Source: a virus. From it: 64,000 nucleotides of DNA. The stretch is taken from positions 1 through 64,000 of the IMG/VR virus record IMGVR_UViG_3300001201_000002; one strand, written 5' to 3'. Shown here piece after piece: positions 72 through 52,171 of the stretch; the first letter of the stretch is position 1, and every line of letters begins with the position of its first letter. The notes beneath the pieces were generated by a model. The model searched no databases and was not told the DNA's origin. It worked only from the letters and a program-made list of their open reading frames with translations. The position numbers were made by a program, and so were the translations under genes.

Positions 72-147
72 TGGTCAGGGCGGTAGGACTCGAACCTACG
101 ATCTCCGCATTCCAAATGCGGCACTTTACCAGCTAAGCTACGCCCTG
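72..147 (-). tRNA. tRNA-Pro (anticodon UGG), CCA encoded
   Basis: Reverse complement folds as a full cloverleaf: acceptor CAGGGCG/CGCCCTG, D stem GCTT/AAGT, anticodon stem CCGCA/TGCGG with loop TTTGGAA, T arm GTAGG-TTCGAGT-CCTAC, discriminator A plus CCA. Confidence 0.9.
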
Positions 148-5807: not shown

Positions 5808-6172
5808 CCAAACAGCTGCTGCACATGAACCTGTCCGATCTTGAAATCAAAATCCTTGCCGAAGACAGGAATTACAGTCCGTATATGCACGGCAGGCAAA
5901 TTGGCAAATCCATGCTTCAACAAAGACTCCACGAAGCAATGCTTGAAAGAATCACCGGAAACAAAATCGACTACGTCGTAATTGACGATGGTCCTTTCAA
6001 AATGGATCGGAGATACTTCCAGAAGTATTACATGCAGGATTGGTCAATTCCAGATTCTGACAACCGTGGTGACCATGATTGGAAGAGAACTGAGTTCAAA
6101 TCTGGACCTACAACTCCACCTTCTGAAGCCAAGCGTGCAAAGCTCAGAGTCAAACGAAAGAAGAAACGATGA
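5747..6172 (+). CDS. hypothetical protein (141 aa) with basic C-terminal tail
   Basis: Ends KRAKLRVKRKKKR. The start is uncertain (ATG 5747 or 5780). Confidence 0.55.
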   Translation: METDNPEKPKIMLTDGATSIAKQLLHMNLSDLEIKILAEDRNYSPYMHGRQIGKSMLQQRLHEAMLERITGNKIDYVVIDDGPFKMDRRYFQKYYMQDWSIPDSDNRGDHDWKRTEFKSGPTTPPSEAKRAKLRVKRKKKR

Positions 6173-6396: not shown

Positions 6397-6651
6397 ATGG
6401 CCCAGATTCTAACCGCAGGAATGACCGATGACGACCGTCGAGCCCAGCTCGAAATGATCACCGAAAATGATGTCAAGCACAACTTGTTCTCGCTAACTCA
6501 GGTATATTGTGCCAAAGATCTATGGCGTTGCAGTGCTGAGACTGCAGAGAAACGACTAAGAAATGGAAGGATGCCAAGTGCCCAAGCTATCTCTCGACAA
6601 CAAGAGCGTGATAATGGAATCGACAGATCGTGGAGTAAACGAGACCAGTGA
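6397..6651 (+). CDS. hypothetical protein (84 aa)
   Basis: ATG after AAAGGA. Confidence 0.5.
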   Translation: MAQILTAGMTDDDRRAQLEMITENDVKHNLFSLTQVYCAKDLWRCSAETAEKRLRNGRMPSAQAISRQQERDNGIDRSWSKRDQ

Positions 6652-34831: not shown

Positions 34832-37000
34832 GTGACTTCACCTCTATTCAATCTCGAAGCAGCCGTCGAACATGACCACCACCCGGCTATGCAGGATCTC
34901 TGTGATCTTCTGTGCCACCGGACAGGTAATGTTGACGATGGTTTCTTCAAAGCAGAAGTTGCCTACTTCTTGGGTCTGATCCCAAGCTCTATGCGGGCTA
35001 CGATCGACTCAGCTGAACGTGGCACTCTGCCAATCAACATCTACTCCATCGCCTTAGCCACATCTGGTTTCGGTAAGGGCCACTCAGTTGGTATCCTGGA
35101 AGATGTGATCAGTGATTTCCGTGACAAGTTCTCGAACTCCACATTCCAAACCATTGCCGATCAGAGCTTGTTCGACATGGCTGTGGAAATTGCCGCAACC
35201 AAAGGCGGTGACGAGGACGAAGAGCTTAAGCTTCTCGAAGGAGAGTTCAAGCGGGCTGGTGCCCCAGTCTTCACATTCGACTCAGGTACAGGTCCTGCGG
35301 TCAAGCAGTTACGTTACAAGCTTCAGCTGGCCGGCGCCGGGGCGATCAACTTCCAGATGGATGAGATCGGCTCGAATCTCCAGGCCAACACTGAAGTTAT
35401 CAACACACTCTTGGAACTCTACGACCAAGGTAAGATCAAAACCAAGCTGGTCAAATCGACTGGTGACAACGAACGTGGTGCAGATCTTGTGGCCCAAACT
35501 CCAGCCAACGTGCTGATGTTCGGTACGACACACAAGCTGTTTGACGGCTCAAAGATTGAGGAGGAATTCTTCTCATTCCTAGAGACCGGATACGCACGTC
35601 GTTGCTTCTTTGGTGTTGGCAAACCCAGCACAGTGAAGGGTGAGATCAACCGGGAAGATGTTTACAAGAGCCTGGTTTCAACCAATCGGTCGATGGCACA
35701 GGAAAAGTGGAAGGTCCAATTGGCCAAGTTCGCTGATCCGCGCTTCTTCAACCGTAAAATCTCAGTATCTGATGCGGTGGGCATTGAGCTCATCGGTTAT
35801 CGCCTGTTCTGCGAGCAACAAGCAGGTGAACTTCCTGAGCACGAAGTTATCCGTAAGGCCGAATGGTCTCACCGGTACTTCAAAGCTTTGAAGCTGGCAG
35901 GTGTTTACGCCTTCCTGGACGATTCAGATGAGATTACTCTCCGCAACCTCTATCAGGCTGTCCGCCTAACCGAGGAATCCGGTGAGAGCTTCCAAAAGAT
36001 GTTGAAGCGTGAGCGTAACTTTGTGCGCTTGGCTAAATACATCGCGACCACACCTGGCGAGCTGACTCACGCTGACCTGGTTGATGACGTCCCGTTCTAC
36101 CCAAACTCAGCTAATCCACGTCGTGAGATGATGGATCTAGCGATGGCTTGGGCGGTGCAGAACCATGTTGTGATCAAGAAGAAAGTCACTCAGAATGTTG
36201 AGTTCTTCTCTGGTTCAACCCTGCAGGAGACCGATCTCAGCCGGATGCGTTTCAGCTACTCTGACCAAATGGCCCATGATTATGAGCCAGCGGTTCAACC
36301 TTTCGATAAAATGCCGAATCTGCTTGCTGCAGATGACATGCACTGGTGTAACCACCAATTCGAAAAGGAACACCGTCGGGAAGAGAACGTCATCCCTGGG
36401 TTCAACATGATTGTCATCGACGTTGATGGCGATTGCCCACTGTCAGTGGTTCATGAGCTGATGAAGGACTACACTTTCATCACGGCTACGACGAAGCGTC
36501 ACACCGAAGAGGAAAACCGCTTCCGTCTGATCCTGCCCATGAACTATGAGCTGCACTTGGACAAAGAAGAGTACAAAGAGTTCATGGACTCTGTGCTTCT
36601 CTGGCTTCCCTTTGACTCTGACAAGGCTGCAAACCAACGGTCCAAGAAATGGATGACGCTGGAAGGCAGCGAGGTAAAGCTCCACCGTGGGCCGAGCCTG
36701 ATCAACGTCTTGCCCTTTATTCCAAAGACAAAATCTAACGCTGAATTCCGAGAACGTATTGTCGATCTTGGTAATCTCGACCATATTGAGCGTTGGTTCT
36801 TGAACAACATGGATGAGGGTGGCCGGAATAACAACCTCCTGAACTTTGCAATGATGCTGAAGGATGCCGGTGCTGACTTTGATCTGATTACGGACAAAGT
36901 GAAGACGATCAACAAGCAATCAGCTTCCCCACTAAAAGAGGAAGAGATCGAAACCACGATCTTAAAATCTGTGGGACAAAAAATGGATGAGGCCATATAG
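34832..37000 (+). CDS. putative DNA primase (N4-type replication protein)
   Basis: GTG start after AAAGGA. NMIVIDVDGD (DxD, prim-pol-like) in the C-terminal third. Size and position between nuclease and Sak4-like ATPase match the N4 replication module. Confidence 0.5.
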   Translation: MTSPLFNLEAAVEHDHHPAMQDLCDLLCHRTGNVDDGFFKAEVAYFLGLIPSSMRATIDSAERGTLPINIYSIALATSGFGKGHSVGILEDVISDFRDKFSNSTFQTIADQSLFDMAVEIAATKGGDEDEELKLLEGEFKRAGAPVFTFDSGTGPAVKQLRYKLQLAGAGAINFQMDEIGSNLQANTEVINTLLELYDQGKIKTKLVKSTGDNERGADLVAQTPANVLMFGTTHKLFDGSKIEEEFFSFLETGYARRCFFGVGKPSTVKGEINREDVYKSLVSTNRSMAQEKWKVQLAKFADPRFFNRKISVSDAVGIELIGYRLFCEQQAGELPEHEVIRKAEWSHRYFKALKLAGVYAFLDDSDEITLRNLYQAVRLTEESGESFQKMLKRERNFVRLAKYIATTPGELTHADLVDDVPFYPNSANPRREMMDLAMAWAVQNHVVIKKKVTQNVEFFSGSTLQETDLSRMRFSYSDQMAHDYEPAVQPFDKMPNLLAADDMHWCNHQFEKEHRREENVIPGFNMIVIDVDGDCPLSVVHELMKDYTFITATTKRHTEEENRFRLILPMNYELHLDKEEYKEFMDSVLLWLPFDSDKAANQRSKKWMTLEGSEVKLHRGPSLINVLPFIPKTKSNAEFRERIVDLGNLDHIERWFLNNMDEGGRNNNLLNFAMMLKDAGADFDLITDKVKTINKQSASPLKEEEIETTILKSVGQKMDEAI

Positions 37001-38926: not shown

Positions 38927-38973
38927 GTTACTGGTTGCCTAATCAACAACCAGGTGTGGGAGTTCCGATATAT

Positions 38974-39930
38974 ATGGAAGACGGTGAAGTCATCTTTACA
39001 ATGACGGATCCGCCGACCATACGTTCAAACCCGACCCAACGAGCCCATAGCATCAGCCTTCCTATGCGGATCCAAACATCCTCTAAGAAGCAAACCGCGC
39101 TCAACCTGAACGTCTATCGGAACCTCCACCACCGTTCTCATCATGCTCTGAAGAAGAAATTCGAGAAGCTGGCAACGGACCTTCTGGGGGACATCCCTCC
39201 AATGGGGCGAATCAGACTGCATTACTCAGTCTGCCCACAAACCAGACGCAGACTTGACATCATGAATGTGTGCTCAGTCATCGACAAGTATTTCTCGGAC
39301 GCTCTAACAGAGAACGGGATAATCGAAGACGATGATTACACCCATCTCGACTTTGTCTCTTGTGGTTTTGGTGGCTTAGCCCCGAAAGAACATGTCCTCG
39401 TGACAATCACTGAAATCGAAGAAAGAGATCCAATGAAACTTGCAATGACTGCTGAGCTTGGTGCCGAAGACATCAAGGAAGCCATCGCGAATTATGTTAG
39501 CACAAAGGTGGACCAAGAAGTGTCTCCATCTGATGTTGTTATGAATAACGCTAACAGCGCGACTGTGACCGTGGGCGATGCTCCGGCCGCTACAACCACC
39601 CCTGCTCCGAAGCGTAAGCGTCGGACCAAAGAAGAAATTGCTGCTGACAAAGCAGCAGAAAAGGCTGCCAATGAACCCGATGCTGACGAGACTGTTGAGA
39701 GTGGCAGTGACGGCGATGGCACAGGATCTGGTAACGACACAGAAACGACAACTCAGCCTACCGAAACAACGGAAGCCGACCCCGCCCCAGCGGAGGATAA
39801 GCAGCCAAAAAACGATTCAGCGGAATCGACCGCGGAATCCTCAAAGACTGACGGTCCAGCCGAAGTCGTCGAAGAACCTGCTGAAGCTCCCGTGAAGAAA
39901 AAGCGGAAGTCTTCCATCTTTGACCAATAA
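38974..39930 (+). CDS. rusA: RusA-family Holliday junction resolvase with ~160-aa acidic disordered C-terminal extension
   Basis: PQTRRRLDIMNVCSVIDKYFSDALTENGIIEDDDYT and VLVTITEI match the RusA blocks (RRRDLDN..K...DAL.....DD..V ; L.ITI.E). The tail is rich in E/D/T/A/P. Confidence 0.7.
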   Translation: MEDGEVIFTMTDPPTIRSNPTQRAHSISLPMRIQTSSKKQTALNLNVYRNLHHRSHHALKKKFEKLATDLLGDIPPMGRIRLHYSVCPQTRRRLDIMNVCSVIDKYFSDALTENGIIEDDDYTHLDFVSCGFGGLAPKEHVLVTITEIEERDPMKLAMTAELGAEDIKEAIANYVSTKVDQEVSPSDVVMNNANSATVTVGDAPAATTTPAPKRKRRTKEEIAADKAAEKAANEPDADETVESGSDGDGTGSGNDTETTTQPTETTEADPAPAEDKQPKNDSAESTAESSKTDGPAEVVEEPAEAPVKKKRKSSIFDQ

Positions 39931-40111
39931 AGAATTGTTCAAGTGGGCGAGCTATGCTTGTCTGCTTGGCTGTCTTTCAGTTGGTGTTCTCGTTGTAGGA
40001 ATCCTGATCGGATTCGTCCTCACACTGTTGACCCCAGTGCTCATAGTTTTCACGGGACTATGGGTCTGGCGGTTCATTAATGTGGACCCTGACGAGACAC
40101 CAACTGAATAA
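39920..40111 (+). CDS. small membrane protein (63 aa)
   Basis: TTG start. Two TM helices (YACLLGCLSVGVLVVGILIGFVLTLLTPVLIVFTGLWVW). Confidence 0.45.
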   Translation: MTNKELFKWASYACLLGCLSVGVLVVGILIGFVLTLLTPVLIVFTGLWVWRFINVDPDETPTE

Positions 40112-40329
40112 CGACTTCAGCTCCATTTGATCGAAGCCGGTAGGATTGCAAATCCGAAAGAAGCGAAAGATTGGACAGAAGGCCGGTGACCTGAATTGGC
40201 GTTAAACAGGTGACGTGGGAGAGACCTCAACTATTTTTTCAAAGGAAGTGGCGCACTGTGAATCCGTAGTCGACCGGGGCACCGGTGGTGAGGGTTGCAA
40301 CTGTTTGGACTCGTATTTCCTGTCAGTCG

Positions 40330-40649
40330 ACGGGCAGATCTCACTGGTTCGGATAAGTGCTTAGCGCGGTATGGAAGGACCATGCAGGTAGCTCAATGAG
40401 AGCCTTCCTTTGAAAAGATAGTTTTTTGAGTCGCCCTGGCGGTCCGCGGAGGACCGGTATTTGCCAGAATGCGAGCAAGAGGAGACTGGCATCCCTCTTA
40501 GGACCAGGGCCTCACAATAAGCTATCTTCCATGCGGGTTCATGGTGAGTGTAACCGGTGCAAGCCCGGTCAGTTTCCATTGCGGTTGCTGCCTGACGTAG
40601 GTCAGATTAAGACTTAAAACTGCGGGTTCAAATCCCGTCGCCCGTACCA
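40330..40649 (+). ncRNA. structured RNA with tRNA-like 3' domain (tmRNA-like architecture; function unknown)
   Basis: T arm GCGGG-TTCAAAT-CCCGT (40622-40638). Acceptor 3' strand CGCCCGT plus A plus CCA (40639-40649) pairs with ACGGGCA (40330-40336; 6 of 7 bp). Closing helix 40354-40364 with 40607-40616. H-type pseudoknot GCCAG/CTGGC interleaved with AAGAGG/CCTCTT (40463-40499). No credible ORF. Confidence 0.5.
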
Positions 40650-40671
40650 ATTTCAACCAAGGAGCAAACAA

Positions 40672-41427
40672 ATGACACCGAATCAACTTTCCCGTAAGGT
40701 ACTGGAAACACTGAACCAATTGAACAAGTCAGGCACCGTCCTGGCTATGGCCTCCGGCATGGAGACTGCTGTTGTGGTTCGTGAACGCAAAGACCTGAAC
40801 GATCAAACTTCCACCGTTAATGTCATGAGCATTCCGTCCTTCGTGGCCGAGCACATGATGAACCAGGAGTACATCACACCTACAGTAAACCCAGGCCGGG
40901 TTGTTCGTCTTGTGATCTCTCCAGAAGGACGTCAGGCAATCCCACGTTTGACAGCTGATCAAGAGAACCTGGCTTCCTCTCTCACAGAGAAGAGCCCTGA
41001 TGAGGTTCCAATGAACATGCGCTACGTTGCGGATGACAGCCCAATCGTAGGCCTGGCTCGTCGCCGTGGTCCAGATGGCAACCACTTCCTCTCACCTGAA
41101 GAGGTAGCGGCTGGTGACCGGTTCCGCGAAGACTTCCAACTCAGCGAGACTGATAAGTTCATTGCTGAGAACTGGGCCGAGCAGCTCTTGGACACTGAAG
41201 TCCCTGCAGGTGTGGTGATGGCCCGATCTCGTCTTCTTGGTGTTCTCAATGACCTTGGGCCCGACCTGGCTGAGCTAACAATCACTGTGCTTGGTTTGAA
41301 TCAAGGTTTGGAGAAGACTGAAAAGGATTTCGGCTGGTCTGCACGATCTGCCAAGATTGTACTCCGCATCGCACTACGTCGGATGATCACCTACTACGAT
41401 CAGAATCCTAACGCTTTGATCGGATAA
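40672..41427 (+). CDS. putative DNA-binding regulator with sigma-70 region-4-like C-terminal HTH
   Basis: RBS AAGGAG. C-terminus LGLNQGLEKTEKDFGWSARSAKIVLRIALRRM resembles sigma region 4 (..s.gTVKsRL.RAl..L). Last gene of the rightward arm. Confidence 0.45.
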   Translation: MTPNQLSRKVLETLNQLNKSGTVLAMASGMETAVVVRERKDLNDQTSTVNVMSIPSFVAEHMMNQEYITPTVNPGRVVRLVISPEGRQAIPRLTADQENLASSLTEKSPDEVPMNMRYVADDSPIVGLARRRGPDGNHFLSPEEVAAGDRFREDFQLSETDKFIAENWAEQLLDTEVPAGVVMARSRLLGVLNDLGPDLAELTITVLGLNQGLEKTEKDFGWSARSAKIVLRIALRRMITYYDQNPNALIG

Positions 41428-41433
41428 AGAATC

Positions 41434-41471
41434 TCACCGGGGGTTTCCCTTCCCCCCGTTTACCCCGGTGA
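41434..41471 (+). other. 9-bp hairpin after last rightward gene
   Basis: TCACCGGGG ... CCCCGGTGA. No T-run. Confidence 0.5.
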
Positions 41472-41668
41472 TGAGTATCGGCTTGCTAGGTCGAGAAATA
41501 AAACATCAGCAATGGGACCCGATTGTCCAGCTCCTTCAATCGCCTCCCTAAAGTCCTCACGTCATGTTCAGAGTCGCCACAGCGCGATACCACTGTCAGG
41601 GGGCATCCCATTCTAATACATCAAGCGATAATGCGTTCACATTCCCTTTGGTCAGGCGCTTGATGTTA

Positions 41669-41711
41669 GGTCCGGTCAATACAGGCTATCACTGTCTGAT
41701 ACGACCGGACC
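41669..41711. other. perfect 9-bp inverted repeat with 25-nt loop in convergent intergenic region
   Basis: GGTCCGGTC (41669-41677) / GACCGGACC (41703-41711). Confidence 0.6.
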
Positions 41712-41893
41712 ACCTAATTCTAATTGTCATGAAAGTCAGACCTATCTTCATGGGTTGAGACTCCACGACAATCGTACCGTCGGTCACACCGGCACAGATG
41801 ACCCGTTTTAATCGGGTGGCGTAGTACGTGAAAAGAAGGGATTCGACCCGATTAATTATCGTCACGGCAAACGAAGCATTAGTGCTTACATCG

Positions 41894-41954
41894 AAAAGAG
41901 CCCACACCTTGGATGGTCAGCAATCATCCTCAGAACGGTGTGGGCTCTTTTTTA
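41894..41954. terminator. bidirectional rho-independent terminator between convergent arms
   Basis: 15-bp stem AAAAGAGCCCACACC/GGTGTGGGCTCTTTT with A-run and T-run flanks. Lies 3 nt downstream of the vRNAP stop. Confidence 0.85.
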
Positions 41955-41956
41955 GC

Positions 41957-44900
41957 TCAATCCTTCGCCCAGTCGATCAAGTTAATCCATGGGTTGAGAT
42001 CTGGGGCGCCAAAGAGCATGTCTGAGCCTAATGAGTAGTCCAAACGACCATCCGCCGCCACAGAGAGCAAGTTGTCGTCTACGGGCGAGCCCACGTCCTC
42101 AGCCAGGCCACCAGTGATCAGAGCACCCACAGGATTGTTCTGCAAGGTCTTCAAACCAATCTTCATGATCCGGATCTTAAACGCAAGGAACCAAGATCCA
42201 CCCATAGACTCCAAGTAGGAACGTGTGCGGCCCGGCAATACGGAGAAGTTCACAAACTCTTCGTTCACCTCTTGCATCGCTTCATCGTGAGTCTTGCCTT
42301 GCTCAACCATGTGATCGTAATAGATGGCCTTCGCAATGAAATCACCATACTGGACCGACTTGTTCGCAGCCTTGTAGATAGGCGTGTCACGGCTCACCAG
42401 AGCGTATTTGGCGACTGTCTGTAGTTTTCCTGGCAAACGATCCAGTTGACCCTCGACGTAGTCCACAATACCTCCGCCAGTTAGCTCTTTGTCCATCTCA
42501 GTGATACCCTCGGAGATGTTCTTGTAAGCACCGGCTGCAACCAATGGAGCGATACTCATACGAGCGTTTTGATCCCAAACAGCCTGACGCTGCTTCTGCA
42601 GGATCTTCACTTGGTTCTTGTCTGTACCGGCCAGCTGGATACGTGCATTGAGTTCGATAATCTTGGTCACGTTCTCGTTGTACTGCTCGATCTCAACTAA
42701 CTTGGCGCGTGTGCCCTTAACGATGGATTTAACTCCGACACCACGAGTCGCCAACTGCAACATGTTAGCCTGAGCGTTCATGAATGGGACAACCAAGGAA
42801 CGAACAACAATCAAATCTTTCGCACTAGAGATGACGCCCTGAGTACCTTCTTCAATCTGGCTGAGTATAGGGATGGCCTTATCCCCTAGCAGTGCTTTAG
42901 CGGTGGCACGAACTGTTGTCTGTACTCCCTCTGGGAGGCGTGTCTTTCCGGACCACACATCAACGATTGAAGGTTCACGGTATCCTGTGGTCAAATTGAC
43001 CATATCCTTGCGGATCATGAACCCACCTTCTTCACCGAAGATCTCTTCGATCATCAAACGAGTCTCAGGAGAAATCACGTTCCAGCTGTCTGCGAAGATC
43101 GGATCATCTGACTTGCTCATATCAACGAACAGGCCATCAGTGCCTTCCTCACGGTTGTCGTAGATGTCTTTGACAGCCTGGATAAGCTCAGCGTTGTATT
43201 TACGTGCGAACTGCTCTTCAGCCTGGCGACCGGCCCATGCACCAACCATGAGAGCCAGGTTAGAGCGAGGAGCTGTGTATGCCTCTTTTAGATCAGGGTT
43301 CAGCGCTCGCTCATAACCAATGACACCATCAGCATCGAATACTGGGATCAGGACTTCTTTATCATCAGATACGTCACCCAACTGCTCAAGCTTAGATGTG
43401 ATGGTTTGAACCGATGCAGCATCGTTAATGTAGCCGGATGTGGTCCCATTCACAGACTGTCCCGTATCAGCATCAACACCACGGTATGAAGCCTGAACCG
43501 ATTGGATAACTCCCTGGGAATACATACCGCCCTGTTTTACGGTCGTTGCATAGTACCCGTAGGTGTTTGAAGAAAAATCCAGATCCGCGGATGCGTCAGC
43601 AACCCGTGTGAAACCTTTGCGAACCAGACTATCCATGTCTTTATCGTTACGGATGACAAGCTGGGCTCCACCAGAACCTTGATCAGGAATGAAGCCTTTG
43701 TATCCATTCATCTGGGCTTCTGTAGAGACAAGACCCTTTGTAATTTTGTCCTCTTCCTGACGGTTAAGGCCTTGCATGTAGACAACCAGAGCAGAAACAC
43801 CATCGGGATCTGCGTTGTAAAGGTCGACAATCTCCTGCTTAGCCTCGACCGACTGCCCCTGCAGAGCATACAGAGAGATGAGCTGGTCGATCTCAGCAGT
43901 CATGTTCGCATCGAACTCAGTTGTGATCTTGTTGATCGCGTATGCGTTCTTCAGCATCTGGTGACCGGCGCCATTCCCATTCATGAAGTTGGCCAGCTGT
44001 TGAGCCTTAGTCAGAACGAAGTCCGCACCGTCCTTGGAATAGTTGGCTACGATCGCTTTCTCAGCAGCTTCGATCTTCTTGGTTAGACGAGCCTCGCTCA
44101 TAACCAGACCAAGAGAAGCATTTGGGTTGTTCACATCGAACAAAGCCGCAAAGTCAGTCTTGCCTAGAACAGCGTGCATTGTTTTCCACTGATCTGCAGT
44201 TGGCTTGTTCTCGAAAGCACCTGCCAGAATGTTAGGCAGATCTTCACGGAAAGCCTGGCGCACAGAAGAAACCGCATAGTTGGTACGGTCGAGCAGAGCA
44301 ACAACGCTGGAGTTGATGGAGTCTGTGCCAACAACCTCTGTGACGAACTCACGGATTGGAACGAAGTGATCGAGAGCCTGTCCGAAGTGTGTGACATCTT
44401 TCAGACCTTTGGCAGCCAGCTTGCTACGATCCTCGGTCAAGAATGAAGAAGCTAGAGCAACAGAACCGGTCACCGCTTGTACCAGTGCGTTTGCATCTTC
44501 GTCTTTCATCTTGCGGTCAAACTCAGACGCCCGGCCGGCCAATAGATCCATGGCTCCGGAAGTTGCTTTGTTCGCACGGTTGATGTTGCTCATCAGGCCT
44601 TTCAGAAGGCTGTACTCTTTGTCACCTTCCTGGATGATCAGCTCTTCAGCCGCAGAACCGTCTGCAGTGTCGATTGAACCAAGGACCTTAGCCATCAGCT
44701 TAGATGTGGTCGCCTCAAGGAAACCATCCAGATTGCCGTCATAGATTGGAGACTCAGGTTCAGGCAACTTGTCCAGAGCAGCGCGGAAGCCGTTAGATGT
44801 CTGAGACAGAGCCAACAGAACAGCGACAGCGTCTGACACGTCTTCATCGTTGCTTGTGTTGCCGAACATGTCCATGACAGTCTGGAAGCGCTCAGCAGAG

Positions 44901-47900
44901 TTCACAGAACCAAACATGTTAGGGCTCAGGTTAGCTGACACGTGTTCAAACATCTTGTGCAGTGCGACACCTGAAGTTGGATCGAGACGCATCTCAGTGG
45001 CCAACACAGTGTGGATCGCCATGAATGTCTGCTTCTGGTATTCGCTCATTGAGAAGCCACCAAAGTCAAGATCACGAACCAGTGACTTAGAAGAGGCCAC
45101 GTAACGGATCAGCTGATCTTGATCGACAGTCCCATCAGTTACAGAGTTGTCCAACCGTTCACGAACAAGGTCGATCCAGAAGTTAGAGAAACGCTTAGCT
45201 GCATCAGAGACTCCGTCGCCCGATCCATCGTTTCCATCACCACCATTCCCGTTGCCGCCTTGGCCCAACATACGAGTGTTGAACAGGATGTTTGAGAACA
45301 TGTCACGTGGGACAGCTCCACCCAGTACCCGGCTGATTAGGGCAATGACTTTCTTGGTCAGTGTCTGTGTTTCGGTCGCCTTCGTCTTGTTGATCAGGTC
45401 TTGGTTTGACAGGTTCCAAGCCATGAATTCGTTCAGAGCAACTGCTTTGCTCATCGCAGTTCCAGAGTTCTGGTTCAACAGGATAGAGGCAGACGCTTTG
45501 TTCGCAGCAGCCTGCAGCTCAGGAGACTCTTTAGAGAAGTCCATGCCCATAAACTCATTCATAAGCAGCTCAAGGCGCTCGACCGCTTCATCACGGTTGC
45601 CCTCATAGTGAGCCAGAACCTTACCGAATGTCGCCAAGTGGACCAGTTCGTGGGACATGGTCTCAGCGTTGTTGTTGACCATGAAGATCACGTTGTTCTC
45701 AACATCGTACATGCCGTTCGCATCGACCAGAGTTTGGCCGTCAGTTGCGAAGTTCTCACGACGGTAGTCTTGAAGCATATCCAAAGGACCGGTCACCACA
45801 CGAGCACCCTCAGGGATCTCTGAGCGAATTGCTTTCAGAACCTGACGGATCTCTGCAGATTTGGTTGACTTCAGAAGAGCATCAATAACAGTCGTCGCCG
45901 GAGCAACGCCCACTGTGTTGAATTCACCTTCCACAGCTTCACCTACTGGAGTGTCTGACTCCATGCCGATGTCAGTCTCATTGTTGAAGACTGCGTCTGG
46001 AACGTTGTTGATCTCACGACGGATCATGTGGTTGATCTGGGCCAAGTCCGCTTCACCTTCGCCGCGGGTGTATGCAGAATTTGAGCCACCCATGTGATCG
46101 ACGGAGACTGGGATGTTCTTGAATGCCGCCTTACGTGCTTGGTTCTGTTTGTGCATTTCTTGCACAGCTTCCAGCAGTTCTTGAGCATTCAGAGCAGTTA
46201 CGCTGGTCTTGTCCGCAGCCTCTTTAGTAGCAGCAAATGCCGCTTCCAGGAGATCGCTATCGTCACCGACAGACTCAAGGAATGTGGAGAAGTCAGCTTC
46301 TACGTCTGCCAGGACATCACGGTCCCAGTTCTGCATCACAGCTTCGTTGATCTGGTTTGCATAGCTAAAGACTTTATTGATAGGCATGTCGATCCCGTCA
46401 AAGACAGGAAGCGTATCAGTCGGCGCATTGTCTGCAGAATAGATCGTGTTCATCATCATCGCGTCACCACGACCGATTGACAAATATGGGATCACCTTGA
46501 CACCGGCCAGTGCCGGCTGAGCCATAGTCGCAGGCATACGAAGAGCACCGTCCATTGTGGAAGAGAGCTCGATGTTTGAGGCAGCAGGTTCGAATGAACC
46601 AACAGCAAGGGTCTGTGTGCCGTTGGAGTAAGTCGGAGCATAGGCCCGCAGTTCACGAACAAGGTTGTTGTAGTCGCGGTTGCTCAGCTCAGAGATGATA
46701 CCCTTGCCTTGCTTGTTGCGACGTAGCTTGCCTTCTGATGCACGCTTCTCAGCCAGCTCTTCCAAACGACGCTGGAACAGGGCTTGCAAGAAGTTGGTCT
46801 GGACATTGGTCAAGAATACCAGAGCATCGTTCACGTTTGTGATCTTATCACCGATCACCTTCTTAGCAGTGGTCGACAGGATGTCACCAAGGCCTTTGGT
46901 TACAGTGTCTTCGAAGCGCTTCATTGACTCTCCGTCGAGGAAAGTAGAACGCCAGTCTTCACCCTTCACGAGTGTCTCACCGAAGATCGTTTTGAAGTCC
47001 TCAGCTAGGTTTGGATAACCAAGGAATGAGGCAGCATCTTGGCCCGCTGGGACCTTCAACATCTGCTCATAGAACTCAAGGACCATGTCCTGAGCGATGC
47101 CGGCAGCCACACCACGAACCCCAGATCCGTAGACAGTCTTGGTCATCGGAGACTTGGATGTGGAACGTGTCATCTCGTATTGGCCGTCTGAGATCTTCAG
47201 GTCACCGAATGCCGCAGAGAAACGAGCCACCGCATGGAGCATAGCTTTTTCGTTACCCTTAGCGTTGCCGATCCGTGTTGCCAGTTCACGCTGGGCTGTC
47301 TTGGATGTCACTTCGTAAAGGTCAACCTCACCCTGAGTGAATAGTTCATTCAGAGTTCCCTCAGTTGTGCCGAGGAAGAAACCAACACGCTGGAAGTTCT
47401 CAAAATCAGACTGGGTCAATTCACCTTGGCCGAAGTTGCTCATCATGTTGGCTGGGCCATCAGTCTTACCGTCAAGCTCGAAGCTCATGGTTGTGTTGAA
47501 CTCAGCCTCTGTGCCTTTGGCTACTGCAAAGCGATACTGAGCGACTGCAACCACAGCAGAGATCTCAGCCATTTCAGCAGTGCCGATAGCTTCACCGAAT
47601 GCCACGCTGTCAATCTCACCGGTCTCAACCCACTGTTGGGCTAGATCAGTTGCCTCACCGAAGCGCTCATTGAAAGCAGCCTCTACGTTTTCAAGGATCA
47701 TCTTATGGTCTTGGTTCTCAACTTTGAACAGATCTGCAGCCTGAGCCACAGTCAACCAGAACGCATCTTTGTCAGCCTGGTTTGTCATGTCCAATGTGGA
47801 GTGAGTCGGTGTCACCATCGCACGAAGGATCTTGTTGTTCTGAGGGTTGATGCCCTTGAACTGATGACGGCCAACTTTAGAGATGCCGACCGGGTAGTAA

Positions 47901-50900
47901 ACCGGAACAGCTTCATCTGAGTTCTGGCCATTGATTGCATCAACCAAAGCCATCGCATCTTCAAAGTCACGCTCGATAGACAGGTTCTTGCCTGTGATCG
48001 AAGCCTTTAATGGGTGCCCATCAGAGAGGTCTGTAGCATCGCGGAAACCAAGAACGTTATTGAGGACAGGGAAACCGAGAGCAGAAACAAAACCAGATAC
48101 GCCTTCGCTAATGAAGTGAGGAGTGTCCTGCATGCGCTTGAGAGCAGCTTTCTCGATTCCTGAGAGCGGTACTGACGAGCGGTTTTGATTGCTGCTAGTC
48201 GTTGCGATAGGTGTTCCGATTGACGGTCCATTGGTATCCTCCGGAGCTACAAGCTTAGCAACAGAGTCACGGGCTTCAAGGCCGATCTTCTCCTGCATCT
48301 TCTTCAGTCGTTCGATGTTGATCGTCTTGGCAGTCACCAACTTGCCATCTTTACGGACAGGCAGATCAGTCATTTCGATAAGACCGATGTCTGCAGATAC
48401 AGAAATCAGTTCCTTGACCAGAGACTCCACAGCACCACGGGAGTTGATGATTGGGGCGTCCTTGGCTTCTGTCATGTTCCAGATCTTCAGAACAGAGCGA
48501 GCCACTGACTCAGATACCTGGCGAGGAGAAACACCAAACATCAGGTCACGCATATTCTGGTCTGTCAGGTCTGAGAAGTTCACACCCATATCTTCCAGAG
48601 TATCGTCCATCAGGGCAGGGTCTGTAGCGCGAGCAGAGCTCATCCAGTCGATCAGTGCAACAGTTGCCATGGACAACAGAGCCGGGTCGTACTGGCCTGT
48701 CTCAGGGTTCACAAACATGGTGTTTTTGTACTGACGGATCGCTGTAGGGTCGACGGAGTCAGATGCCAAAGCTTCAGCCACAGTGTGGTTCTTGTCGAAC
48801 TTCACAGTCTTCAGACGTTGGTTCATACGCACGGAGATTGGACGCAGGAGAGCCTTAGCAATCTGCTTGTATTCAGGGCTTTGAACCTTCCCAATCAGAG
48901 AAGCACCATCAGTGTAATCGACCTCAGCACCAGTTGGTGTGAAGGAGTCTTGGAAGATCTGAGGCAGCTCATATGTATCACGGTCTGATACAACTTCTTG
49001 AGCAGCAGCATCCTCTTCAGCTGTTATCGCCTCCTCAGTCGCATCCGCCGCTGGCGCGTCAGAAGCTTCTTCGATCGCCTCTGGTGCCGTTGTGTTGTCT
49101 GGCTCTACTTCTGTTTCTTGGACTTCTTGTTTTCCGTCCGAATTCGTTTCTGTGTTGCTTTCGTTTTCTGCAACCGGGTCAGTGCTTTCTTCTTGTAGTG
49201 TCGGGCCTTCATTTGTGTTCTCGATGTTCAGGGCTGGTACTGCAACCTCACCAGCAGGAAATAGTTCAGGGAATGTGCGAGCCAAGGTGTTGTAGACGTT
49301 GGCAGCTGCACGAGCATCATTCTCAACCTCTTGAGCAAACCTGACACCATTCAATTTGTGGCCTTGATAGGTTACCGGGCGAGCAGATCCAGCTTCACCA
49401 GGGTTGACCATCTTACGGCCTTTGAGGCTTAGAGAGCGGAATGATTGCTGAGTACCCTTACCTTTAGAGTCTGCTTCAGCAGCAGATCGAGACAAGGCAT
49501 CAGTCTTGTTTGTCATGTGCTCAACGAACTTGGCGAATTCAGATGCCACTTCAGCGACTGGAACCAAAACACCATCAGATCCGCTGACTTCTTTAGTCTC
49601 AGACTGGGCACCTACAAAAATGTCCGCAGCAAAGTCATTGATTGACCGAGCACCTGCAAAACCACCCACCTGGATGGAGCGTGAAGCGTCTTCGATCTTC
49701 ATTTCTGGCTTCAGACGATTAGGGTTTGCTTGGTATGCTGGCTTTTGGCTCAGAGCAACACGTTCGTTATTGGAGATCTCAACTTGCTGACCCATGTGAT
49801 TGTTTACAGTGGTCGCAATTTCAGATGCCGCACGAAGAAGCTTTACTTCCTCGTCAGAGACAGTGCCGGCAGGTTGCTTGAGGATCTTGTTCACAAACGA
49901 AGGATTGACGTTAGCTGGGTTGACCTTGGCAACCTCAACAGCAGAACCGATCTCTGTGTCGTTCAGTTCTGTGTTTTCGCTTTGGGTCTCATTTAGGTTT
50001 GTGTTCTCGAATTCGCTACGAACAAATGTCGTTGCTTCTTGGCTGTATGCCTTTACCGCGGCGCCGGCAGCTTTGACTTTGTCGACGACTTTTCCTGCAG
50101 TGGTGCGAGTTGAGATGCTTTCTCCTTTGGATGGGGCATTACCAAACAAATCAGGGAAAGCACGGATGCTGTTTACACCGCTCTTCTTGACGTTCCCGTC
50201 GATGATGACAGGAGTCCCATCAGCAGTCGTACCGGCATTTTCAATTGTCGCATCATCCCACAACAGACCGTCTTTCTGGACAACTGCAGCGATAGGATCA
50301 GACTCAGCTTGAGTGGAGATTGTCTGTACTTTAGGCATGACTTCCACGATCAGGTTTCCTACCCGTTGGCGAGCAATAGGCTTCAAAACATTGGGGTGAT
50401 CCAGGTAGCCTTCCTGATACTCTTCCCCGATACGAATAACGACGTCAGGGTCAGATGTGCCCATAACAACACGGCTTTGTCCGCCACCAAGCTTCTCGGT
50501 GATCGCGTATCCAGCCTCATTCAACAGAGCCTCGACATTCCCCAGATCAGGAGAAGCCGCGATTGTCTGTGCAGTTGCATCGTTGGTTTCTTGATTGAAA
50601 GCAGAACCAGCTTCACTTACTTCAGCGTTACTTTGGCCAGCAGATGCACCAACCATCTCACTGAACTCAGGAGAAACAGGCTGAGGTGTCTCAGGAGAGT
50701 ATGTCTCGATACCAGGAGTGACTGTCTCTGTGGTTTGGCTTAGACGCACCGCTGGTATCTTATCCGCAGCTGCCTTGATGATTCCAGGAACTGAACTGAG
50801 AGCATTGATCCCAGTGCCACCAACACGAGCCACTTGGCCCGGTCCAGCAAGGACACCAGCCATACCAGCTCCACCAATGGCACCAGTTGCGATTTGCTCA

Positions 50901-52171
50901 CCAACACTTTCAGCCAAAAGCTGTGAAGGATCCACTTGGTTCTGAATTGCTACGTTCTGGTTGAACTGAGCTGAACCACCTTGGAGACCTTCTTCCAGAG
51001 CCTGCTTACCAAGCTCGGAGAACTGATCGACCATGTTACCACGCATTGTGGTGATAGGAGCAGCGTTGAATTTGCCGGCCCCTGTCGCCAGTGTCAGGGC
51101 AGCAGCTGTAGGGAATTGACGATGGAAGGCTTCCAAACCAGCAGAAGCAGCGACCAACTCTTGAGCACGGGCAGGATCCATCCCACCGTCGATGAATTCA
51201 ATGAACTCAGGAGAGCCCATCATGTCATCAAAAGAACGGCCCATCACTGCGTTGACAGTGTCCGTGTAAGCACCTGAGGCTTCTGAAGCACCAACACCTG
51301 CAGCGACACCCGCTGACGTGATGAACTTCTGGCCAGTAGAAAGAGGATCAACACCGAGTGCATCTGAAAGACGTGTGGCCAGTTTACCTGTCCCAGCGGC
51401 AATTTTAGCTGAAGGCCCTAATGAACCAAGAGCCTGAGCAATAGTGTCAGTGACCAGAGCACCGTCGGAAAGAATGCGCTCACCAGTGTTCAGAGTGTCA
51501 CGACCAATACGGGCAACTGAAGCCATAAACTCAGAACCACCTTCGGCAACATCCCGCTCATACTGGGCAAGAGAGTCGGCCGCATCCAGTTGAGCTTCTA
51601 CGTTAGATAGGTTCTGACGGTCGAGGAATTCCTGAGATTTTTGATCATTCAACCAGTTGGTTGCAATATCTGTGCCTTGCGCGATAACAACAGAACCACG
51701 TTGAAGGAGTTCGTTCTTCGTATCCACACCTGCGGCAATTTCATCATTGACAGCAGAGCCTACAACATCGCGGATGTTATTACCTGACCCGGCAGCCGCA
51801 AGAGCTGTTGAAGCAAGGCCACCTACCATAGAAGTCAGGCCGCCCAATGCACCGAGAGCTACATCACCAGCTTGTTGGCCAGTTGTACGTTGCGCATCTT
51901 GAACACGACGCTGTTCTGTAAGTTCCTGAGAGATGTTTCCACGTTGGTTTGCAATCTGTTCGCCATACTTAGCGACGAGCTGACCATGTGTCATTTCAAG
52001 AAGATCACGTCCCAATCCTTCTTCGGTCAGGTCATTGCCTTCACGAGAGGAAACAGCAAGCTGCTCTACCAGCGGAGACCCAGACGACAAAGCTTCCGCC
52101 AAGGTATCACTTGGGGAAGCTTCTAGGAACGCTGGATCACGCAGTGGCGAATTCAGGTACGTGTCTGACAT
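41957..52171 (-). CDS. virion-encapsidated RNA polymerase (N4 gp50-like vRNAP), 3404 aa
   Basis: Giant ORF with a central T7-like RNAP domain. SKVGRHQFKGINPQNNK is the DxxGR-type block. FELDGKTDGP is motif A (~47471). TRSTSKSPMTKTVYGSG is motif B (~47121-47171). LPVFDGIDM is motif C (~46388-46405). Confidence 0.95.
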   Translation of the reverse strand: MSDTYLNSPLRDPAFLEASPSDTLAEALSSGSPLVEQLAVSSREGNDLTEEGLGRDLLEMTHGQLVAKYGEQIANQRGNISQELTEQRRVQDAQRTTGQQAGDVALGALGGLTSMVGGLASTALAAAGSGNNIRDVVGSAVNDEIAAGVDTKNELLQRGSVVIAQGTDIATNWLNDQKSQEFLDRQNLSNVEAQLDAADSLAQYERDVAEGGSEFMASVARIGRDTLNTGERILSDGALVTDTIAQALGSLGPSAKIAAGTGKLATRLSDALGVDPLSTGQKFITSAGVAAGVGASEASGAYTDTVNAVMGRSFDDMMGSPEFIEFIDGGMDPARAQELVAASAGLEAFHRQFPTAAALTLATGAGKFNAAPITTMRGNMVDQFSELGKQALEEGLQGGSAQFNQNVAIQNQVDPSQLLAESVGEQIATGAIGGAGMAGVLAGPGQVARVGGTGINALSSVPGIIKAAADKIPAVRLSQTTETVTPGIETYSPETPQPVSPEFSEMVGASAGQSNAEVSEAGSAFNQETNDATAQTIAASPDLGNVEALLNEAGYAITEKLGGGQSRVVMGTSDPDVVIRIGEEYQEGYLDHPNVLKPIARQRVGNLIVEVMPKVQTISTQAESDPIAAVVQKDGLLWDDATIENAGTTADGTPVIIDGNVKKSGVNSIRAFPDLFGNAPSKGESISTRTTAGKVVDKVKAAGAAVKAYSQEATTFVRSEFENTNLNETQSENTELNDTEIGSAVEVAKVNPANVNPSFVNKILKQPAGTVSDEEVKLLRAASEIATTVNNHMGQQVEISNNERVALSQKPAYQANPNRLKPEMKIEDASRSIQVGGFAGARSINDFAADIFVGAQSETKEVSGSDGVLVPVAEVASEFAKFVEHMTNKTDALSRSAAEADSKGKGTQQSFRSLSLKGRKMVNPGEAGSARPVTYQGHKLNGVRFAQEVENDARAAANVYNTLARTFPELFPAGEVAVPALNIENTNEGPTLQEESTDPVAENESNTETNSDGKQEVQETEVEPDNTTAPEAIEEASDAPAADATEEAITAEEDAAAQEVVSDRDTYELPQIFQDSFTPTGAEVDYTDGASLIGKVQSPEYKQIAKALLRPISVRMNQRLKTVKFDKNHTVAEALASDSVDPTAIRQYKNTMFVNPETGQYDPALLSMATVALIDWMSSARATDPALMDDTLEDMGVNFSDLTDQNMRDLMFGVSPRQVSESVARSVLKIWNMTEAKDAPIINSRGAVESLVKELISVSADIGLIEMTDLPVRKDGKLVTAKTINIERLKKMQEKIGLEARDSVAKLVAPEDTNGPSIGTPIATTSSNQNRSSVPLSGIEKAALKRMQDTPHFISEGVSGFVSALGFPVLNNVLGFRDATDLSDGHPLKASITGKNLSIERDFEDAMALVDAINGQNSDEAVPVYYPVGISKVGRHQFKGINPQNNKILRAMVTPTHSTLDMTNQADKDAFWLTVAQAADLFKVENQDHKMILENVEAAFNERFGEATDLAQQWVETGEIDSVAFGEAIGTAEMAEISAVVAVAQYRFAVAKGTEAEFNTTMSFELDGKTDGPANMMSNFGQGELTQSDFENFQRVGFFLGTTEGTLNELFTQGEVDLYEVTSKTAQRELATRIGNAKGNEKAMLHAVARFSAAFGDLKISDGQYEMTRSTSKSPMTKTVYGSGVRGVAAGIAQDMVLEFYEQMLKVPAGQDAASFLGYPNLAEDFKTIFGETLVKGEDWRSTFLDGESMKRFEDTVTKGLGDILSTTAKKVIGDKITNVNDALVFLTNVQTNFLQALFQRRLEELAEKRASEGKLRRNKQGKGIISELSNRDYNNLVRELRAYAPTYSNGTQTLAVGSFEPAASNIELSSTMDGALRMPATMAQPALAGVKVIPYLSIGRGDAMMMNTIYSADNAPTDTLPVFDGIDMPINKVFSYANQINEAVMQNWDRDVLADVEADFSTFLESVGDDSDLLEAAFAATKEAADKTSVTALNAQELLEAVQEMHKQNQARKAAFKNIPVSVDHMGGSNSAYTRGEGEADLAQINHMIRREINNVPDAVFNNETDIGMESDTPVGEAVEGEFNTVGVAPATTVIDALLKSTKSAEIRQVLKAIRSEIPEGARVVTGPLDMLQDYRRENFATDGQTLVDANGMYDVENNVIFMVNNNAETMSHELVHLATFGKVLAHYEGNRDEAVERLELLMNEFMGMDFSKESPELQAAANKASASILLNQNSGTAMSKAVALNEFMAWNLSNQDLINKTKATETQTLTKKVIALISRVLGGAVPRDMFSNILFNTRMLGQGGNGNGGDGNDGSGDGVSDAAKRFSNFWIDLVRERLDNSVTDGTVDQDQLIRYVASSKSLVRDLDFGGFSMSEYQKQTFMAIHTVLATEMRLDPTSGVALHKMFEHVSANLSPNMFGSVNSAERFQTVMDMFGNTSNDEDVSDAVAVLLALSQTSNGFRAALDKLPEPESPIYDGNLDGFLEATTSKLMAKVLGSIDTADGSAAEELIIQEGDKEYSLLKGLMSNINRANKATSGAMDLLAGRASEFDRKMKDEDANALVQAVTGSVALASSFLTEDRSKLAAKGLKDVTHFGQALDHFVPIREFVTEVVGTDSINSSVVALLDRTNYAVSSVRQAFREDLPNILAGAFENKPTADQWKTMHAVLGKTDFAALFDVNNPNASLGLVMSEARLTKKIEAAEKAIVANYSKDGADFVLTKAQQLANFMNGNGAGHQMLKNAYAINKITTEFDANMTAEIDQLISLYALQGQSVEAKQEIVDLYNADPDGVSALVVYMQGLNRQEEDKITKGLVSTEAQMNGYKGFIPDQGSGGAQLVIRNDKDMDSLVRKGFTRVADASADLDFSSNTYGYYATTVKQGGMYSQGVIQSVQASYRGVDADTGQSVNGTTSGYINDAASVQTITSKLEQLGDVSDDKEVLIPVFDADGVIGYERALNPDLKEAYTAPRSNLALMVGAWAGRQAEEQFARKYNAELIQAVKDIYDNREEGTDGLFVDMSKSDDPIFADSWNVISPETRLMIEEIFGEEGGFMIRKDMVNLTTGYREPSIVDVWSGKTRLPEGVQTTVRATAKALLGDKAIPILSQIEEGTQGVISSAKDLIVVRSLVVPFMNAQANMLQLATRGVGVKSIVKGTRAKLVEIEQYNENVTKIIELNARIQLAGTDKNQVKILQKQRQAVWDQNARMSIAPLVAAGAYKNISEGITEMDKELTGGGIVDYVEGQLDRLPGKLQTVAKYALVSRDTPIYKAANKSVQYGDFIAKAIYYDHMVEQGKTHDEAMQEVNEEFVNFSVLPGRTRSYLESMGGSWFLAFKIRIMKIGLKTLQNNPVGALITGGLAEDVGSPVDDNLLSVAADGRLDYSLGSDMLFGAPDLNPWINLIDWAKD

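Follow-up and report, generated by a model that had tools for sequence, protein, structure and literature searches.

What kind of RNA is specified by a stretch of phage DNA that is a few hundred nucleotides (nt) long and ends in the manner of a tRNA? The question is posed by positions 40330-40649 of a 64,000-nt stretch of DNA, termed here the window (positions 1 to 64,000 of the IMG/VR virus record IMGVR_UViG_3300001201_000002), from a marine N4-like (Rhodovirinae-like) phage. A first reading of the sequence, referred to below as the original prediction, had described this segment as having the architecture of a one-piece transfer-messenger RNA (tmRNA). We find that the region is not a tmRNA. 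By comparison with related phages, the flagged stretch is a conserved, folded, strand-specific non-coding RNA in three independent domains. We assign a probability of about 0.6 to the reading that a plus-strand RNA spanning positions 40237-40649 consists of a junction domain (D1), a pseudoknotted rod (D2) and a tRNA-like module (D3), and that these belong to an array at the tail of a transcript, which would be cut or stabilized at its tRNA-like modules. The locus does carry a structured element of several hundred nt with a genuine pseudoknot and a CCA-ended, tRNA-like 3′ module, as had been proposed, but these do not make up a single 320-nt tmRNA-like unit. Features described below lie on the plus strand unless otherwise stated.

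Related loci were gathered by two routes. Closer relatives (metagenomic contigs L013-L022) were reached through homologs of the RusA-like protein encoded upstream of the region, and an alignment-based scan of IMG/VR supplied 80 further N4-like loci. All of the closer relatives carry 570-1040 bp of non-coding DNA at the same position, and pairwise comparison revealed that these gaps are mosaics, in which shared blocks recur in differing combinations. Some of the non-coding blocks are 90-95% identical where the RusA proteins are only ~55% identical.

The best-supported domain is D1 (40237-40415), a multi-helix junction for which RNAalifold derives a consensus with covariation. A closing helix of 12-15 bp, P1 (40237-48/40404-15), encloses P2 with its invariant GCGC/GCGC (40251-54/40364-67), a conserved two-tier hairpin P3 (40261-65/40292-96, with an inner helix at 40273-77/40282-86) and the hairpins P5 (40369-74/40380-85) and P6 (40391-94/40400-03). 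The definition also includes a conserved B hairpin and the invariant sequences GUGGCGCACUGUGAA and CUUAGCGCGG, and the window has every one of these elements. Homologs of window positions 40231-40427 occur in L013, L047/L048 and L051, with a reduced form in L019, a spread of four to five lineages. In a four-sequence alignment, 98.8% of the 170 cells of the 43 pairs are paired, compared with just 35-47% in controls in which the partners were slid. Thirteen of the 43 pairs are altered on both sides, a level of compensation reached by none of 500 shuffles, in a statistic that is inflated by the phylogenetic signal among these few sequences. The strands of P1, for example, read UUUGAUGAGCUG and CAGCUCAUUCAAA in L051 and CAAAGGAAG and CUUCCUUUG in the window. 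D1 also has invariant G-U pairs (such as columns 32-71 and 150-164 of alignment A2) that become A-C mismatches on the other strand, and the RNA is therefore on the plus strand.

A covariance model of D1 (R1) scores the window at 211 bits over positions 1-201, the window being one of the sequences from which the model was built; L019, an independent match, scores 64 bits. Across 91 sources the model matched only the known D1 lineages, all of which are related phage loci, and a pattern scan for D1 returned the same IMG/VR contigs only and nothing among GTDB genomes. One part of the junction is free to change. The variable arm (40297-40362) is occupied by unrelated sequence at the same position in four lineages, closed at its base in each; in the window it adopts a local fold of -23 kcal/mol, in which GACGGG pairs with CCUGUC.

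D2 (40416-40527) is a rod that carries a hairpin and an H-type pseudoknot. Besides the window it was found only in L013 (6444-6578), to which it was aligned. The rod is built from R1 (40416-24/40519-27), R2 (40427-30/40511-14) and R3 (40433-39/40504-10), and holds the hairpin H1 (40440-45/40451-56) and the pseudoknot stems S1 (40463-67/40486-90) and S2 (40477-82/40494-99). All 37 pairs form in both sequences and nine of them are compensatory, including four of the six in S2. Specifically, R3 reads GCCCUGG/CCAGGGC in the window and AUCUUGG/CCAGGAU in L013, S1 reads GCCAG/CUGGC and GCUAG/CUAGC, and S2 reads AAGAGG/CCUCUU and CACUUG/CAGGUG, respectively. The long GCCCTGG/CCAGGGC helix and the textbook pseudoknot that the original prediction had picked out are therefore real.

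These same helices bear on whether positions 40330-40649 form a ~320-nt one-piece tmRNA-like molecule that serves in trans-translation, or a mimic by which SmpB, AlaRS or EF-Tu would be titrated. Several features speak for such a molecule: the T arm, the 7-nt strand that follows it, A73 and CCA are all present, the pseudoknot inside is genuine, and the 320-nt piece, taken in isolation, adopts a fold in which its two ends pair (z = -2.27). The proposed 5′ acceptor strand, ACGGGCA at 40330-36, is indeed complementary to the 3′ strand through six Watson-Crick pairs, and the flanking bulged helix (40354-64/40607-16) exists, with 9 bp. Neither, however, rises above chance. Partners of 7 nt with at least six Watson-Crick pairs occur 0-8 times per 670 nt for other T arms in these loci, and the bulged helix ranks 313th of 438 sliding windows and is equalled by 88% of shuffles. 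Moreover, the acceptor strand, the 5′ strand of the bulged helix (40354-64) and the element likened to a D-loop, ACTGGTTCGGA (40343-53), all lie in the variable arm of D1. The 5′ half of the closure is not conserved, being replaced by unrelated hairpins in every homolog. CUGGUUCGGA may resemble the tmRNA 5′ motif (the D-loop analogue).

Pairing the strands at 40330-64 with 40607-40645 would cross P1 and P2 of D1. On the interval 40230-40655, enforcing D1 and D2 gives -159.6 kcal/mol, close to the unconstrained minimum free energy of -161.5 kcal/mol, whereas enforcing the tmRNA-like closure together with D2 gives -142.4 kcal/mol, ~17 kcal/mol worse than the domain model. As the acceptor and bulged-helix strands sit within the covariation-supported D1, which starts at 40237, ~95 bases further upstream, the proposed 5′ boundary at 40330 is wrong. 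The A-rich sequence that had been compared with a resume-codon context is double-stranded: it begins as the 3′ side of P1 and runs on into the 5′ side of the D2 rod. The GCC and the A-rich run upstream of it both fall inside covariation-supported helices (R1-R3 and P1). The original prediction had itself conceded two departures from tmRNA, and both are borne out. Position 3:70 is a G:C pair (G40332:C40643 in its pairing) rather than G:U, and there is no tag-like frame, the sole frame from the GCC at 40433 reading ALAVRGGPVFARMRARGDWHPS before a stop.

Searches with established models gave the same answer. ARAGORN reported only a tRNA-Pro in the window, and relaxed thresholds yielded no one-piece tmRNA, just nonsense permuted calls at ps50. 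Against Rfam 15, nothing in the region reached its gathering score, and the same holds for any family (YrlA, GOLLD, ROOL and group I/II introns included) in the window and five related loci, where no relevant match appeared at E ≤ 5-10 either. When 700 nt were searched at E ≤ 10, no tmRNA family was reported, in a scan that would suppress a tmRNA match weaker than the overlapping tRNA match of the same clan (E 0.079); the only matches were this 21-bit half-match to tRNA and a 20.5-bit match to the twister-sister ribozyme. The likely hosts, Rhodobacterales, use a two-piece tmRNA. We therefore regard the chance that this region acts as, or imitates, a one-piece tmRNA as close to negligible.

What remains of the tRNA resemblance resides in D3 (40532-40649), a module of ~118 nt. 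The T arm GCGGG-TTCAAAT-CCCGT (40622-26/40634-38) is followed by CGCCCGT (40639-45), A40646 and an encoded CCA (40647-49), just as had been read from the sequence. This class of motif (5-bp stem, TTCRANN loop, 7 nt, any nucleotide, CCA) occurs on the two strands of the 64-kb window only in D3 and in the tRNA-Pro. Folded alone or with D1 and D2 enforced, D3 is predicted to close on itself through a local acceptor-like stem, in which UGCGGGU (40532-38) pairs with GCCCGUA (40640-46), and to form hairpins at 40553-57/40565-69 and 40592-96/40601-05. An alternative register, from G40533 to U40645 with A73 left free, is equally possible. Neither pattern scans nor the loci of relatives yielded a homolog of D3, so that its fold is a prediction only. 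The fallback suggestion, of processing at a tRNA-like element that lies shortly before the next gene, is compatible with this module.

D3 is not itself a tRNA: it scores 21.4 bits against the Rfam tRNA model (RF00005, threshold 29) with only the T arm and 3′ strand aligned, lacks both a D arm and an anticodon arm, and is not called by ARAGORN at default settings. It may nevertheless have been derived from a tRNA gene, to judge from its sequence. The tRNA-Pro(UGG) of the window (72-147, minus strand) ends in CGCCCTG-A-CCA, where D3 ends in CGCCCGT-A-CCA (40639-40649), and both encode the CCA. A hairpin of D3, CCGGUGCAAGCCCGG (40554-40568), is identical to a conserved hairpin of the twister-sister ribozyme. 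The match to that whole model (RF02681) spans 40496-40599 with 20.5 bits and an E-value of 0.096, the gathering threshold being 34; we rejected it because it is sub-threshold, leaves the internal-loop nucleotides unmatched and demands helices at 40500-40515 that contradict the covariation-supported rod of D2.

A second tRNA-like module, T1, is found in relatives (L013 6139-6275, L015 about 6410-6530 and L020 4313-4437). It comprises a UUUCCUAGGAA hairpin, a 7-8-bp hairpin with a loop containing GCGCA, and a T arm that reads GAGG/CCUC in some sequences and UUGGG/CCCAA in others. On visual inspection, both the T stem and the hairpin before it vary in a compensatory manner; an automatic alignment of T1 was out of register. 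In L013, where a tRNA-like module sits between D1 and the conserved block upstream of it, T1 ends in GCGACCA directly before D1. A two-piece (permuted) tmRNA in L013 was considered and rejected, as inspection by eye found no downstream strand complementary to the 3′ acceptor strand of T1.

The three domains are part of a longer assembly. Upstream of D1 lies block A (40171-40234), a hairpin module that is conserved in relatives at ~90% identity to L016/L018 and 81-85% to L013 and L050/L052, where the adjoining RusA proteins are ~55% identical. Blocks A and B together correspond to window positions 40171-40300, L016 6183-6245 and L019 5469-5542, and their 90-95% identity, set against that of the neighbouring genes, could reflect either stronger constraint or more recent exchange. 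Downstream, beyond a 251-amino acid gene that begins at 40672, the array continues at 41428-41953. There the most prominent element is the C-domain (41451-41627), a conserved structured module that matches L013, L015/L020, L016/L017, L045 and L106 in nhmmer searches from the window; L047 brings the family to six other lineage groups through blastn between relatives and through the C-domain alignments, not through a match to the window. An eight-sequence RNAalifold consensus of the C-domain contains 23 pairs, 12 of which show compensatory changes; the pair of columns 106-151, for instance, is C-G in four sequences and A-U in four. No Rfam family matched the C-domain. It is the most widespread module of the array, and is marked by an invariant hairpin, CCGGCUUGCUAGGUCGG, by AUAAAACAUCAG and by a long-range helix, GUCCU(C/A)...(G/U)GGGC, in which C-G in four sequences is exchanged for A-U in the other four. 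Its positions in relatives are L013 6600-6762, L020 4092-4240, L016 6322-6462, L017 2928-3078, L047 5396-5530, L045 5325-5460 and L106 4172-4320. We also asked whether D3 is a divergent C-domain and rejected the idea, as a profile of five C-domains matches nothing in 40100-40700. Further modules, blocks D and E (41719-41860), are shared with L016, L017, L019, L020 and L107.

Block A, D1-D3 and the modules at 41428-41953 thus constitute a mosaic array of about 1-1.1 kb. Related marine N4-like phages carry the same modules in different combinations between the RusA gene or the small membrane open reading frame (ORF) that follows it and the end of the gene for the virion RNA polymerase (vRNAP). 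In more distant N4-like phages, arrays of tRNA genes fill the same slot (L093, L094 and L096), and L032 and L038 have atypical tRNA-like genes there. These genes, which follow RusA (L032 5186-5283, also in L029 and L043; L038 5226-5330), are ~100 nt long. Their acceptor stem, D arm and T arm are normal but their middle is oversized, and ARAGORN makes no call for them. A tRNA-Lys(UUU) heads the array in one lineage (L015 5947-6025, L020 3859-3938).

Cultured phages gave no DNA homolog of 40100-40700 and a single 54-nt match to 41428-41960. Searches of IMG/VR by exact DNA patterns found no DNA homolog of the region, one such pattern scan returning ordinary tRNAs by chance and nothing else. Exact-pattern scans gave zero matches in GTDB genomes and in JGI metagenomes, the latter scans likewise not returning the source contig. 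The large assemblies that hold the closest relatives were reached through protein look-ups only. Four additional relatives from Logan/ENA match the C-domain or block E and have no D1, D2 or D3. We found no literature on these sequences or on tRNA-like elements in N4-like roseophages.

The array sits at the end of a plus-strand unit that includes genes for a primase (34832-37000) and for a Sak4-like protein, SSB and a RusA-like protein (38935-39930), followed by the small membrane ORF (39920-40111), which overlaps the end of the RusA-like gene. Its small product is hydrophobic and shares the conserved motif ...P(I/V)LIVFTGLW(I/V)W..., and the ORF recurs at the same place in most close relatives (L013, at 5850-6025, L016, L019, L021 and L022); the gene caller missed it in L013, L016, L019 and L021, and it looks degraded in L017. 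On the minus strand the convergent vRNAP gene (41957-52171) encodes 3404 amino acids. The closest cultured relatives are Rhodovirinae roseophages, with ~40% identity in RusA. Only one or two small ORFs separate their RusA gene from that of the polymerase, so that both the 560-bp gap of the window and its 251-amino acid gene are additional. The gap itself (40112-40671) has no credible ORF in the ORF listing, as originally noted, and none that is conserved. A hidden protein gene was rejected, as tblastx of the window against L013 produced frame switching and in-frame stops.

The gene that follows bears on a different reading, in which the region would be a cis-regulatory 5′ leader, for instance one that resembles a riboswitch or is controlled by processing. 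The 251-amino acid protein (gene 40672-41427) belongs to DUF6456 (Pfam E-value 1e-36) and is ~40% identical to residues ~103-358 of Rhodobacterales proteins of ~370 amino acids, Yoonia and Loktanella chromosomal proteins among them. DUF6456 is the family of GafA, an activator of gene transfer agents (PMC9638019), and the C-terminal part of GafA corresponds to GafZ, which was shown to be a transcription antiterminator in Caulobacter (PMC11150451). The window protein is in effect a GafA that lacks the N-terminal DNA-binding domain, and the part retained corresponds to GafZ. In a database of 5.8 billion protein clusters, its next closest sequences are bacterial. The spacing would suit a leader: the CCA end of D3 lies 10-11 nt before the ribosome binding site AAGGAG (40660-65) and 22 nt before the ATG, and the consensus scan described below lists no terminator-like site between. 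D1 and D2, however, are present in relatives without any GafZ-like gene, and no relative examined, including all of the closer ones, has this gene at the locus. Since the array continues downstream of it, the gene appears to have been inserted into an RNA array that was already in place, and since the closest proteins are Rhodobacterales GafA/GafZ, it looks host-derived. Host gafA homologs also leave the upstream sequence unexplained: a decayed N-terminal domain in the gap was sought by tblastn with host proteins and rejected, only noise being found upstream of 40672. A leader function thus seems quite improbable. The GafZ-like protein may redirect host RNA polymerase or trigger the host gene transfer agent, and an antiterminator gene of this kind in a virulent phage offers a separate lead, towards interference with gene-transfer-agent control or with the host polymerase.

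How, then, might the array be expressed? In the reading that we prefer, transcription of the replication (middle) operon would extend into it, so that the array would form the untranslated 3′ tail of that transcript. D3, and T1 in relatives, would each provide a tRNA-derived acceptor/T-arm minihelix recognized by host tRNA-processing enzymes, with RNase P probably acting at the 5′ side and trimming and the CCA-adding enzyme at the 3′ side. Cleavage at these modules would release or stabilize the folded domains with a protected CCA end and, in the window phage, would also detach the mRNA of the GafZ-like gene from them. A consensus scan of 39800-42100 listed no sigma-70-like promoter on the plus strand and no terminator-like site inside the gap; N4-type middle promoters lie outside its coverage, and its terminator search is a crude consensus match restricted to loops of 3-8 nt. 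Four terminator-like sites were listed in all, against 2.1 expected from shuffles, among them weak plus-strand sites at 39939-39969 (in the small membrane ORF) and at 40755 and 40888 (in the GafZ-like gene). A long G+C-rich hairpin at 41894-41953, flanked by A and T runs, is absent from the list, as its loop of ~30 nt exceeds the limit. Equivalent hairpins stand at the same place in L016, L017 and L019, and from its sequence and position it is likely to be a bidirectional terminator between the plus-strand unit and the convergent vRNAP gene.

Several points weigh against this account. Co-transcription and processing of the array are steps that we infer from sequence. The weak terminator-like site at 39939-39969 lies upstream of the gap, and because of this site and the limited promoter coverage of the scan, the modules could have promoters of their own. 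The comparison behind D2 involves two sequences and that behind D1 four or five related ones, so that their shuffle statistics are inflated. The fold of D3, including the 5′ strand that closes it, is a thermodynamic prediction, and its local stem contains two G-U pairs, compared with six Watson-Crick pairs for the distant strand at 40330.

In the principal rival reading, the modules, and D3 in particular, would act in trans as decoys that sequester a host factor, instead of serving in processing or stability. An anticodon or other defence nuclease, a tRNA-modifying enzyme, an aminoacyl-tRNA synthetase (aaRS), EF-Tu and the CCA-adding enzyme are candidates for such a factor. Phage tRNAs are known counter-defence tools, and host anticodon nucleases frequently target tRNA-Lys. 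Other N4-like phages have tRNA genes in this slot, among them the tRNA-Lys(UUU) of L015 and L020, and the mosaic shuffling is reminiscent of how accessory or counter-defence loci turn over. The junctions of D1 and the C-domain are, in addition, highly conserved, with block B 90-95% identical where proteins are ~55% identical, which suggests a specific binding partner. On the other hand, D3 lacks an anticodon-like arm, and no Rfam match links the modules to YrlA or other tRNA-mimic families. We consider a decoy function unlikely.

Conservation might instead reflect an element that acts at the level of DNA, such as a replication origin, a set of phage polymerase promoters or a recombination hotspot. 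Convergent transcription units do flank the locus, which is a mosaic made by recombination, and the promoters of N4-type polymerases are hairpins. Helices whose strands are 170 nt apart and a pseudoknot are nonetheless maintained by compensatory changes, the many conserved G-U pairs make the structure strand-specific, and domains of 110-180 nt far exceed the size of a hairpin promoter. This explanation is highly improbable.

A more novel possibility is put forward tentatively. D1, D2 and the C-domain may be previously undescribed structured RNA cassettes that are shuffled in a ~1-kb island which has taken over the tRNA slot in a clade of marine N4-like phages, where their strongly conserved junctions would bind specific host or phage factors, perhaps as counter-defence decoys, or form catalytic cores, and from which tRNA-like modules would release them. 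A phage-borne mimic of trans-translation would have been striking, and that reading fails. What remains, more modestly, is a set of several covariation-supported RNA folds without an Rfam counterpart, which marine N4-like roseophages carry in their tRNA slot as cassettes that can be exchanged. For research on RNA motifs, D1, D2 and the C-domain supply concrete, testable models, and the locus is a candidate RNA-based accessory locus in an abundant group of marine phages.

Several known systems share some of these features. One is tmRNA (SsrA; RF00023 and the permuted alpha, beta and cyanobacterial forms), with which the window region has in common its size, a T arm with a canonical loop, the 7-nt strand, A73, CCA and an H-type pseudoknot. 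It differs in having no model match, no G3:U70, no tag frame and no single-stranded resume site; its domains are instead independent modules found separately in relatives, and a long-range closure conflicts with covarying helices. With the twister-sister ribozyme (RF02681) the region shares only the conserved hairpin represented in D3 by CCGGUGCAAGCCCGG. Phage tRNA islands, of which the phage T4 tRNA cluster, encoding stable RNAs, is an example, occupy the same slot as the array, and D3 shares with tRNA genes the T arm, acceptor 3′ strand, discriminator A and encoded CCA, but is ~118 nt long, lacks the D and anticodon arms and is joined to domains that are not tRNA-like. The 3′ tRNA-like structures of plant RNA viruses follow pseudoknot domains, and in MALAT1/mascRNA a tRNA-like element is a 3′-end processing signal. 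The window likewise places a pseudoknotted domain before a CCA-type end, for which a role in 3′-end definition or stability is plausible; those elements, however, belong to RNA genomes or eukaryotic long non-coding RNAs, whereas this one is internal to a DNA phage operon, and similarity to them in sequence or model was neither found nor to be expected. Finally, GOLLD and ROOL are likewise phage-borne, multi-domain RNAs of several hundred nt that adjoin or replace tRNAs. Each of these is a single conserved large fold, whereas the window array, which matches neither Rfam family, is assembled from smaller modules that are shuffled among related phages.

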